Below, piece by piece: positions 54,754 to 56,489 of a stretch of 64,000 bases of DNA (position 1 is the stretch's first letter; every line of letters begins with the position of its first letter). The position numbers and the translations under genes were made by a program. Source of the DNA: Escherichia phage TH09; the sequence record MT446387.1, one strand, 5' to 3'. The notes beneath the pieces are model-generated. The model saw only the letters and a list, made by a program, of their open reading frames with translations. It made no database searches and was not told where the DNA came from.

Positions 54754-54826
54754 TGGGAATTAGCCAAGTTGGTAAGGCACTGGATTTTGATTCCAGGATG
54801 CAAAGGTTCGAGTCCTTTATTCCCAG
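54754..54826 (+). tRNA. tRNA-Gln (anticodon TTG)
   Basis: Hand-folded cloverleaf: acceptor tgggaat/attccca, anticodon loop ttTTGat, T-loop ttcgagt. Confidence 0.85.
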
Positions 54827-54827
54827 C

Positions 54828-54914
54828 GCGAGAATGGTCAAATTGGTAAAGGCACAGCACTTAAAATGCTGCGGAATGATTTCCTTGTGGGTTCGAGTCC
54901 CACTTCTCGCACCA
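54828..54914 (+). tRNA. tRNA-Leu (anticodon TAA), type II, CCA encoded
   Basis: Acceptor gcgagaa/ttctcgc, anticodon loop ctTAAaa, long variable arm, T-loop ttcgagt. Confidence 0.85.
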
Positions 54915-54919
54915 AATTT

Positions 54920-54993
<74 letters not shown>

Positions 54994-55003
54994 ATTTAAT
55001 TTA

Positions 55004-55077
55004 CTCCGTGTAGCTCAGTTTGGTAGAGCGCCTGATTTGGGATCAGGAGGTCCAAGGTTCAAATCCTTGTATGGAGA
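55004..55077 (+). tRNA. tRNA-Pro (anticodon TGG)
   Basis: Acceptor ctccgtg/tatggag (two G-U pairs), anticodon loop ttTGGga, T-loop ttcaaat. Confidence 0.8.
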
Positions 55078-55079
55078 CT

Positions 55080-55169
55080 GGAGGCGTGGCAGAGTGGTTT
55101 AATGCACCGGTCTTGAAAACCGGCAGTCGCTCCGGCGACTCATAGGTTCAAATCCTATCGCCTCCGCCA
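55080..55169 (+). tRNA. tRNA-Ser (anticodon TGA), type II, CCA encoded
   Basis: Acceptor ggaggcg/cgcctcc, anticodon loop ctTGAaa, long variable arm, T-loop ttcaaat. Confidence 0.85.
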
Positions 55170-55174
55170 GTTTT

Positions 55175-55250
55175 GCTGATTTAGCTCAGTAGGTAGAGCA
55201 ACTCACTTGTAATGAGAAGGTCGGCGGTTCGATTCCGTCAATCAGCACCA
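55175..55250 (+). tRNA. tRNA-Thr (anticodon TGT), CCA encoded
   Basis: Acceptor gctgatt/aatcagc, anticodon loop ctTGTaa, T-loop ttcgatt. Confidence 0.85.
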
Positions 55251-55251
55251 A

Positions 55252-55326
55252 GGCCCTGTAGCTGGAAGGTTCAAGCAAGCGACTCATAATCGCCAGATGG
55301 TGGTTCAATTCCACCCAGGGCCACCA
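55252..55326 (+). tRNA. tRNA with anticodon CAT, probably the AUA-reading tRNA-Ile of T-even phages (could be Met)
   Basis: Acceptor ggccctg/cagggcc, anticodon loop ctCATaa, T-loop ttcaatt. Confidence 0.75.
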
Positions 55327-55339
55327 AATTAAGAATTAA

Positions 55340-55426
55340 GGGGAGTTATCCCGTAGAGGTAGCGGTGTGGACTGTAAATCCATTGTCATTGCGACTCGGG
55401 TGGTTCGACTCCATCACTCCCCACCA
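55340..55426 (+). tRNA. tRNA-Tyr (anticodon GTA), type II, CCA encoded
   Basis: Acceptor ggggagt/actcccc, anticodon loop ctGTAaa, long variable arm; the D-arm fold is slightly atypical. Confidence 0.7.
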
Positions 55427-55430
55427 ATTT

Positions 55431-55505
55431 GGATGTGTAGCTCAATGGCAGAGCGATCGCCTGTTAAGCGATTGGTTATAGGTTCGAATCCTATCACGTC
55501 CGCCA
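55431..55505 (+). tRNA. tRNA-Asn (anticodon GTT), CCA encoded
   Basis: Acceptor ggatgtg/cacgtcc, anticodon stem atcgc/gcgat with loop ctGTTaa, T-loop ttcgaat. Confidence 0.8.
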
Positions 55506-55509
55506 AATA

Positions 55510-55585
55510 CGAGGCATAGCTCAGAAGGAAGAGCAAGGACCTTCTAAGTCCTGGGTCGTAGGTTCGATCCCTACTGCCTCGACCA
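55510..55585 (+). tRNA. tRNA-Arg (anticodon TCT), CCA encoded
   Basis: Acceptor cgaggca/tgcctcg, anticodon stem aggac/gtcct with loop ctTCTaa, T-loop ttcgatc. Confidence 0.85.
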
Positions 55586-55589
55586 AACA

Positions 55590-55930
55590 AGAAGCCGGGT
55601 CGCTACCGGTAAGTCGTCGGACTGATGTTCCCTGGGTAAGGACTGGCATTAACAAATCTTTACGATCGGTTAATGCCCCCTTACATCACAGCAGAAACGG
55701 CGCACCGAATTATCGATTCGAGGAAATATCTTTGCCGTAAGCCGAGTAGCGTTTTTGACGGAACGTTCGGATATGGTTGAGATATGGCCTTTTAAAATAT
55801 TAAGTAGCGTCAACTGCTTAATAACCGGGTTCGAATCCCGGCGTTTCGTACAAACACTTGCCTTAGCAGGTGGAACCCCGACAAGGTTGCCGCAAGGCTT
55901 AGCCCCGACCGAAAGGTTGGGGCTTTTTGG
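55590..55930 (+). ncRNA. structured non-coding RNA region directly after the tRNA cluster (one or two small stable RNAs; boundaries uncertain)
   Basis: About 340 nt without a plausible ORF, GC-richer than its surroundings; 8-bp hairpin gcattaac/gttaatgc near 55646..55677; tRNA-like T-arm ccggg-ttcgaat-cccgg at 55825..55841; ends in a GAAA-tetraloop terminator. The position corresponds to the small stable RNAs of T4. Confidence 0.5.
55902..55930 (+). terminator. hairpin (GAAA loop) plus T-run ending the small-RNA region
   Basis: gccccgacc-gaaa-ggttggggc followed by ttttt. Confidence 0.7.
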
Positions 55931-55938
55931 TATAAATA
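55931..55938 (+). promoter_or_regulatory. late promoter TATAAATA
   Basis: Exact motif 41 nt upstream of the ORF at 55979, right after the terminator. Confidence 0.6.
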
Positions 55939-55978
55939 TAGTAGTATATTAAAACCACGAATTAAAACAGGAAATAAG

Positions 55979-56452
55979 ATGAAATCATATGCTCAATTTT
56001 TAAATGAAGCGGTGTTAAATGAAGCATCTAGCACCGAAATTCAAGCTGTCGCAAAAGCTGCCATTGCCGCGGGTAAATATTCCTATAAAGATGCTTCCGA
56101 TGAATCACGATTCCAATTTGCTCGTGATATGAAAGCCGAAGGATTTACAGGGAATGCAGTTAGTATGGCTTGGAAAAGTTTAGTTGCTACTGGAGCTGCT
56201 TTTGCAAAGGCTTCAGGTAAACCTGCTCCTAAAGCAGATCCTAAAGTCGCACAAGAGAAAAATATTGTTAAAGGAATTATCTCCAAATATGAAGCTATCC
56301 TTAAAGAGCTTTTAGTAATTAAAACTGAAGGCCAAAAGCTAGCTCGTGCTTATAGTTTCAAAGATAACCCACATGTTCACTCTCTTGAATATGTTGAAGA
56401 CATCCAAAAAATTATTAAAGACCGCATTTGGTCTGCTAAACAAATCAAATAA
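55979..56452 (+). CDS. internal-protein-like protein with CTS-like N-terminus (157 aa)
   Basis: N-terminus MKSYAQFLNEAVLNE; TATAAATA 41 nt upstream; hairpin terminator downstream. Confidence 0.6.
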   Translation: MKSYAQFLNEAVLNEASSTEIQAVAKAAIAAGKYSYKDASDESRFQFARDMKAEGFTGNAVSMAWKSLVATGAAFAKASGKPAPKADPKVAQEKNIVKGIISKYEAILKELLVIKTEGQKLARAYSFKDNPHVHSLEYVEDIQKIIKDRIWSAKQIK

Positions 56453-56460
56453 CATTCTTA

Positions 56461-56489
56461 GCCCTAGCCGAAAGGTTGGGGCTTTTTAG
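56461..56489 (+). terminator. hairpin (GAAA loop) plus T-run, near copy of the 55902 terminator
   Basis: gccctagcc-gaaa-ggttggggc followed by ttttt. Confidence 0.65.

Follow-up and report, generated by a model that had tools for sequence, protein, structure and literature searches.

Proposed covariation-supported folds of the small stable RNAs rnaC and rnaD at the 3' end of a T4-type tRNA operon in Escherichia phage TH09

In the 64,000-nucleotide stretch of Escherichia phage TH09 DNA analysed here (record MT446387.1, hereafter the window; Tequatrovirus, that is, T4-like phage DNA, with coordinates given as window positions on the + strand), the region 55586-55930 is very probably the 3' end of a T4-type transfer RNA (tRNA) operon, in identity as well as in fold, and consists of three adjoining parts: rnaD (species II RNA; 55587-55707), rnaC (species I RNA; 55713-55850) and a 3' trailer that includes the operon terminator (55851-55928). 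Both RNAs are textbook features of T4, known for some 50 years, the roles of which are still given as unknown (PMC3014915, PMC9697503, PMC12685909). What the present comparison of homologues adds is a corrected, covariation-supported fold for each of the two, as well as evidence that the tip of rnaD is modular and hypervariable and that rnaD also occurs outside the T4 group. In these folds rnaC appears as a tRNA-shaped molecule, in which the acceptor/T-arm half has been kept, and rnaD as a rod-like hairpin.

The identification as the small stable RNAs of T4, already suggested from position in the first-pass annotation (made from the letters of the window), is correct, since alignment with phages RB3, T2L and T4 places the region on a stretch that in all three is annotated as rnaD followed by rnaC. 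The coordinates of the parts were carried over from the RB3 annotation by way of this alignment. The window rnaC is 97.8% identical to its RB3 and T4 homologues, differing from T4 rnaC by one A fewer in an A-run (138 versus 139 nucleotides, nt), and the window rnaD is 92.5% identical to that of RB3, 88% to that of T4 and 78% to that of T2L, the tip of which differs. A BLAST search of phage genomes with positions 55500-56000 matched 943 records, nearly all of them from T4-like phages of Enterobacteriaceae; rnaD is matched in 734 phage records and rnaC in 744, at an identity of at least 95% in 669 of the latter. The 5' end of rnaC agrees with the RNAC probe sequence used for Northern blotting in T4, where both RNAs were also detected by RNA-seq (PMC9697503), and both belong to a tRNA precursor transcript of approximately 1.75 kb (PMC2330249). 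By homology to T4, a stable, processed rnaC of about 140 nt is therefore to be expected in the window phage.

The genomic setting is that of the T4 group. Ten tRNA genes (Gln, Leu, Gly, Pro, Ser, Thr, Met, Tyr, Asn and Arg, in this order; ARAGORN and Rfam) occupy the + strand from 54754 to 55585 and are followed by rnaD, a spacer of 5 nt, rnaC and the terminator (55901-55924). This set is of the RB3 type, with ten tRNAs and without segB, whereas T4 has an Ile tRNA and segB, a homing-endonuclease gene, between Thr and Arg. The G+C content is 0.46-0.52 over 55400-55900, which takes in tRNAs and the present region, against 0.29-0.38 in the flanks, an elevation that had been noticed by eye, and all three parts fold more stably than shuffled sequence (z = -4.2 for rnaC, -2.8 for rnaD and -4.1 for the trailer). 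The first-pass annotation had also reported a T-arm, ccggg-TTCGAAT-cccgg, which lies exactly at 55825-55841; an 8-bp hairpin, gcattaac/gttaatgc (55646-55653 and 55669-55676), which is present, extends to 9 bp (GGCATTAAC/GTTAATGCC) and forms part of a longer rnaD hairpin; and a strong terminator, found as a 10-bp stem followed by TTTTT. Its description of the whole as a single structured element of about 340 nt has to be replaced by two RNA genes and a trailer.

The RNAalifold consensus of 25 distinct rnaC homologues, drawn from Tequatrovirus, Kanagawavirus (CIP9, PEi20), Kagamiyamavirus (EcS1), Moonvirus (KM16), Karamvirus (PG7, EnC15), IMG/VR contigs and two metagenome contigs, is a four-helix junction (P1-P4; Table 1). 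When a contact between the loops of P2 and P3 is included, 98.0% of the alignment cells are paired and 27 of the 47 pairs have changed on both sides; none of 500 shuffles reaches these values, and slid controls drop to about 40% paired. Covariance model R1 of rnaC scores the window copy at 156.6 bits. Pair 4-134 of the P1 stem is A-U in 14 and G-C in 11 of the sequences, with 100% of cells paired, while changes on both sides are seen at 16 of the 21 pairs of P2 and at 8 of the 10 pairs of P3, and the middle pair of the T-stem occurs as GC, UA and AU. The sequence of P2 has been replaced in EnC15, PEi20 and the two metagenomic homologues L084 and L095, its length being kept (total length of rnaC, 138-141 nt).

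A T-arm, the loop of which is canonical except in the CIP9 clade (UGCAUGC), runs straight into a 7-bp acceptor stem formed by 55842-55848 and 55714-55720, and both helices covary. The first-pass annotation had instead paired cggaacg with cgtttcg as a possible acceptor stem. That complementarity is real, although it contains one G-U pair and lies one base away from where it had been placed (at 55759-55765 and 55842-55848), but as an acceptor pairing it fails, being broken in 8 of 20 homologues with no compensatory change. As supported by the A-U to G-C compensatory change in P1, cgtttcg is instead paired with CGAUUCG at the mature 5' end of rnaC. Because the segment CUUUUAA, which looks like an anticodon loop, is not conserved and no CCA is encoded, rnaC retains just the acceptor/T-arm half of a tRNA, without D-arm, anticodon or CCA. 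A conformational switch between the terminal stem and the helix of the first-pass annotation (46-52/131-137) was also considered and was dropped because the latter helix is not kept in EnC15, PEi20 and L084.

The apical loop of P2 (UUGACG) and the loop of P3 (CGUCAA) are exact reverse complements of one another, and all six loop-loop pairs can be formed in each of the 25 sequences. In 23 of these, both loops are invariant, including EnC15 and PEi20, in which P2 is otherwise of a different sequence; in EnC15 the minimum-energy fold in fact pairs the two loop segments over 19 bp. The remaining two, L084 (2152-2291, - strand) and L095 (3422-3561, + strand), are the most divergent rnaC homologues and were found on metagenomic contigs of 17.6 kb and 103.7 kb, respectively, by a pattern search in which the loops were left unconstrained. 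Both carry UUGGCG and CGCCAA, that is, a double change from A-U to G-C that preserves the six pairs; both are located 65 nt downstream of a tRNA-Met gene and end in CGUC instead of CGUA. A kissing contact between the P2 and P3 loops is accordingly a well-supported candidate on comparative grounds, yet unproven, because the covariation stems from a single evolutionary event. In having whole short loops of two hairpins that are Watson-Crick complementary, it resembles the kissing complexes of HIV TAR-TAR* and of ColE1 RNA I-RNA II, from which it differs in that both hairpins belong to one 138-nt RNA with a tRNA-like half and in that the contact is known from sequence alone.

The rnaD alignment, comprising 24 distinct homologues, supports a hairpin on the 5' side (H1), a lower stem (H2 and H3) enclosing an internal loop, and an apical hairpin. 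In this model 98.3% of the cells are paired and nine pairs have changed on both sides. Three of the five pairs of H1 covary (CCGG/CCGG, UCGG/CCGA, CAGG/CCUG), with 100% of cells paired, and pair 40-107 of H3 is seen as UA, AU and GC. The 5' strand of the lower stem (55613-55629) is nearly invariant, also in the Vequintavirinae, and the internal loop, in which GACUGA faces GAAA, is invariant and has tandem G-A/A-G where it adjoins H3. It may be a kink-turn or another protein-binding internal loop: G38A39 lies opposite G108A109, invariant and beside H3, and the loop strands of 6 and 4 nt are not of the canonical form. The terminal CCA of the T4 and RB3 rnaD is CCG, CAG, CCU or CCC elsewhere (CCG in the window) and is therefore not a conserved tRNA end.

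In contrast to this scaffold, the apical part of rnaD exists in at least four unrelated sequence versions, the distribution of which does not follow the lineages; a single version is common to a Tequatrovirus contig, the Dhakavirus IME08 and the Vequintavirinae phage A5-4. Comparison of the sequences thus shows a rod-like hairpin with a near-invariant lower stem and internal loop and a lineage-swapped tip. Within the Vequintavirinae (rV5-like phages), rnaD is found in the tRNA regions of A5-4, W70 and LTH01, with a scaffold identical to that of T4; in LTH01 it lies directly 3' of an annotated tRNA-Met, and A5-4 has two copies with different tips, one of which is the IME08 version.

The two RNAs do not always accompany each other. 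In Dhakavirus, rnaD is joined straight to the trailer, without rnaC, and searching the Dhakavirus and Vequintavirinae loci with the rnaC covariance model did not reveal a hidden copy. Conversely, in Kanagawa-, Karam-, Moon- and Kagamiyamavirus rnaC is present, set between tRNA genes, and rnaD is missing; such flanking by tRNA genes is seen in PG7 and EcS1. Their distribution indicates that rnaC and rnaD are independent modules, normally located within or beside tRNA arrays. A pairing of the rnaD loop (CGCUA) with UAGCG in rnaC, seen by eye, was dropped because of this incomplete co-occurrence. Wider searches yielded no homologues in 5,426 complete E. coli genomes and PLSDB plasmids, and the 52 hits of an rnaD scan of representative bacterial genomes are all chance or coding matches (including a conserved Oscillospiraceae gene), so that no bacterial homologue emerged from it. 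In IMG/VR, a motif scan for rnaC (TTGACG...CGTCAA...T-loop) gave just recognisable homologues along with chance and coding hits, and of the 46 loci returned by a 15-mer scan for rnaD, about 30 are chance matches in unrelated sequence. Beyond the known loci, a scan for the 3' motif of rnaD produced chance hits, and two loci that are weakly alike (L154, L175) have no tRNAs nearby.

Several other readings of the region were weighed against these folds. Positions 55758-55851 could be a real, if unusual, tRNA, the variable arm of which is long; ARAGORN calls a 94-nt tRNA-Lys(UUU) here, the loop CUUUUAA has the shape of a lysine (UUU) anticodon loop, a weak Rfam match to tRNA-Sec is obtained, and some GenBank records annotate the homologue as tRNA-Met (PG7), tRNA-Phe (KKP_3262) or tRNA-OTHER (G9062). 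The tRNA-Sec match, however, reaches 18 bits against a cut-off of 47, and RF00005 has no match in 55586-55930 either at its gathering score or at E values up to 10. The acceptor pair that this tRNA requires (49-134) is the uncompensated one noted above, its 'anticodon' segment varies (UUACAA, UUUGAA, UUCAUAA, UUAUCCAA) with the closing stem unpaired, and the annotated mature RNA begins 45 nt farther upstream, at a 5' end that covaries with the 3' end. The tRNA-Lys reading is ruled out by this covariation and retains next to no probability; the 3' two-thirds of rnaC is instead a recurrent false tRNA call of tRNA finders and GenBank records, which is seen in locus L024 (1546-1640) as well as in the window. 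With class II (long-variable-arm) tRNAs and tRNA-Sec, rnaC has in common an acceptor stem that leads straight into a T-stem of 5 bp closed by the UUCGAAU loop, a long additional hairpin just ahead of the T-arm and a position in tRNA arrays. It differs from them in that the 70-nt arm stands where the D and anticodon arms would be, in that U-U mismatches are conserved at two positions of the acceptor stem, and in having neither a conserved anticodon nor an encoded CCA. It likewise shares with the tRNA-like domain of transfer-messenger RNA (tmRNA) and with tRNA-mimicking RNAs such as bacterial Y-like RNAs, stable RNAs that are processed by tRNA enzymes, an acceptor/T-arm half set on a long helix where the anticodon side would be, but unlike tmRNA it lacks a tag reading frame, pseudoknots and CCA. 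No tmRNA was called by ARAGORN, and the single Rfam trace of one is a 10-bit fragment on the T-loop; the covariance-model search of Rfam, one of the checks suggested at the outset, returned no tRNA or other known family for either RNA at gathering scores or at E up to 10, leaving sub-threshold tRNA-Sec and noise. As to a small encoded protein, open frames of 35-65 amino acids are present and the region is covered by 'hypothetical protein' features in many GenBank records, but across homologues neither the frame nor the length is conserved. A conserved protein gene is excluded because the open frames of close homologues vary in where they lie, on which strand and how long they are; the homologues are also separated by indels of 1-2 nt; moreover, the substitutions in the stems are compensatory and the longest frame crosses the terminator hairpin. 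This is scarcely a tenable reading, and the claim that the region is non-coding stands, with no open reading frame longer than 65 amino acids. As a separate observation, many records, such as that of ESCO10 (L006 977-1531), annotate rnaD, rnaC and the trailer with a 'hypothetical protein' or even with named products such as 'head vertex protein', features that probably represent over-annotation of non-coding sequence.

The loop-loop contact itself is open to objection, in that its support is a single compensatory event, shared by two sequences that are related, and the loops are otherwise invariant, which recognition of each loop by a protein would fit as well. Nor does sequence distinguish an intramolecular contact from an intermolecular one, by which rnaC could form dimers or rings, as in the packaging RNA of phi29: complementarity in all 25 sequences and the covariation of the loops agree with either arrangement. 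On the other hand, the length of the long arm is kept where its sequence is replaced, as would fit closure within one molecule; there is no evidence for multimers, and T4 DNA packaging runs in vitro without RNA, which counts against rings of the phi29 kind. Pairing between molecules is accordingly improbable, and closure of the two loops within a single rnaC is the arrangement preferred here.

With respect to function, the conserved scaffolds, the self-closed body of rnaC, the shuffled tip of rnaD and the dispensability on laboratory hosts all point to host-specific protein-binding or decoy RNAs. Our best guess, offered tentatively and with most of the probability lying elsewhere, is that rnaC and rnaD serve as host-specific accessory RNAs, which would decoy or inhibit host factors, for instance tRNA-directed defence or processing proteins, or be recognised by them as targets, and that they are neither translational adaptors nor antisense regulators. 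The acceptor/T-arm half would allow host tRNA enzymes to excise and stabilise rnaC, its 5' end being cut by RNase P and its 3' end trimmed, and the remainder of each RNA would present a rigid protein-binding surface. A more specific version, to be held with somewhat greater reserve, is that rnaC is a tRNA-shaped decoy locked by the loop contact and rnaD a protein-binding rod with a specificity-setting tip, both being RNA-level tools in a contest between phage and host, by which host tRNA-directed defence or processing proteins would be titrated or inhibited or would sense the RNAs. If true, this would explain the dispensability on laboratory strains, the shuffling of rnaD tips across lineages and two subfamilies, and an effect seen in BW-1, a T4-like phage: in three independent lines evolved on the semi-permissive E. 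coli ECOR34, a single-nucleotide polymorphism (SNP) in rnaD, at position 164264, was the sole mutation in common, and virulence on this host rose from 0.17 to 0.98 (PMC12685909). Several points weigh against the account given here. The BW-1 SNP probably lies in the variable tip and could also act on processing or on downstream expression. Because deletions of the T4 tRNA region grow on laboratory strains, any role of the RNAs must be conditional. The non-canonical T-loop of the CIP9 clade means that a perfect tRNA elbow is not strictly required, and RNase P processing and the exact ends of the RNAs are taken from annotation and older literature.

The main rival to a decoy function, of comparable standing to its more specific version, is that rnaC and rnaD are decayed tRNA genes or processing by-products, without a function in trans, which would be kept just because the tRNA machinery excises and stabilises them or because in cis they protect, process or terminate the precursor. 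They normally lie within or beside tRNA arrays and end at the operon terminator, rnaC retains an acceptor/T-arm half, the region is dispensable on laboratory hosts and each RNA is missing from some genera. Conservation is, however, well above what processing would need, as illustrated by the 669 of 744 rnaC records at 95% identity or more and by an rnaD scaffold identical in two phage subfamilies (Tevenvirinae and Vequintavirinae), and the strong, host-specific effect associated with a single rnaD SNP (PMC12685909) also speaks against a mere by-product. In addition, the arms that have no counterpart in tRNA show dense compensatory change, a kept length and a kept loop-loop contact, and therefore selection on the whole fold. 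A lesser prospect, unlikely in our judgement, is a role for the RNAs as regulatory small RNAs (sRNAs) that would base-pair with host or phage mRNAs, with the trailer and terminator possibly acting in the same manner, as an sRNA sponge. The conserved trailer, with its terminator hairpin and U-tail, has the usual Hfq-binding form, the rnaD loop GUCGCUA and the internal loops are conserved single-stranded segments, and the two have been named 'small regulatory RNAs' (PMC9697503); yet the conserved loops of rnaC are taken up by each other, and no extended complementarity was found in the 5,426 E. coli genomes at BLAST sensitivity, short seed matches lying below its reach. Host-specific accessory RNAs therefore remain the reading that we would put first. 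The rediscovery of the two RNAs is in itself ordinary, its value being in concrete handles on a function that has been open since the 1970s: with a corrected rnaC fold, an rnaD scaffold with a swappable tip, the independence of the two modules, an rnaD outside the T4 group and a SNP linked to host adaptation, targeted mutants and host-panel tests can be designed.

Table 1. Parts of the rnaD-rnaC region and their proposed helices (window positions, apart from the Vequintavirinae loci in the last row).
Feature	Position	Strand	Description
rnaD, T4 species II RNA homologue	55587-55707	+	121 nt; starts 2 bases past the CCA of tRNA-Arg
rnaD H1	55594-55610	+	5-bp stem (55594-55598 with 55606-55610), 7-nt loop GUCGCUA
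rnaD 5' strands	55613-55629	+	H2 55613-55619, internal-loop strand GACUGA 55620-55625, H3 55626-55629; from alignment
rnaD apical hairpin	55633-55688	+	Hypervariable tip; holds the gcattaac/gttaatgc hairpin
rnaD 3' strands	55690-55705	+	H3 55690-55693, loop strand GAAA 55694-55697, H2 55698-55705 (C55703 bulged); from covariation model
rnaC, T4 species I RNA homologue	55713-55850	+	138 nt; 97.8% identity to T4 and RB3 rnaC
rnaC P1, 5' strand	55714-55720	+	CGAUUCG, pairs with 55842-55848; acceptor-like stem with two conserved U-U mismatches
rnaC P2	55721-55790	+	Irregular 70-nt hairpin arm
rnaC P2 apical loop	55755-55760	+	UUGACG; candidate loop-loop partner 1
rnaC P3	55798-55823	+	10-bp hairpin, in place of a long variable arm
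rnaC P3 loop	55808-55813	+	CGUCAA; candidate loop-loop partner 2, exact reverse complement of 55755-55760
rnaC P4 (T-arm)	55825-55841	+	CCGGG-UUCGAAU-CCCGG; abuts P1 directly
rnaC P1, 3' strand	55842-55850	+	CGUUUCG, then UA as annotated mature 3' end; no encoded CCA
Conserved 3' trailer	55851-55900	+	Small hairpins CACUUGC-CUUA-GCAGGUG and AACC/GGUU
Intrinsic terminator of tRNA operon	55901-55928	+	10-bp stem, GAAA loop, T5 run
rnaD in Vequintavirinae	L028 1605-1706 and 2499-2619; L029 2496-2597; L030 2506-2607		

The trailer is 98.8-100% identical in T4, T2L and RB3 and about 86% identical in Dhakavirus, where it directly follows rnaD. As a conserved RNA between the last processed RNA and the operon terminator (55851-55928), it is reminiscent of the 3' external transcribed spacer of glyW-cysT-leuZ, an sRNA sponge of an E. 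coli tRNA operon, but this is no more than an analogy. A segment of rnaC, UUGCCGUAAGCC (55732-55744), is similar by eye to a segment of the trailer, UUGCCGCAAGGC (55887-55899), the two forming a short, imperfect direct repeat.

Past the terminator, the DNA of the window is not homologous to T4, RB3 or T2L in the alignment. Directly after the terminator, and approximately 40 nt upstream of an ATG at 55979, lies TATAAATA (55931-55938), the T4 late-promoter consensus. The open reading frame that starts there (55979-56452) is followed by a second terminator at 56460-56483, AGCCCTAGCCGAAAGGTTGGGGCT with TTTT, which is near-identical to that of the tRNA operon, AGCCCCGACCGAAAGGTTGGGGCT (55901-55924), and several related phages likewise have a further copy of this 36-nt terminator cassette, about 600 bp farther downstream.

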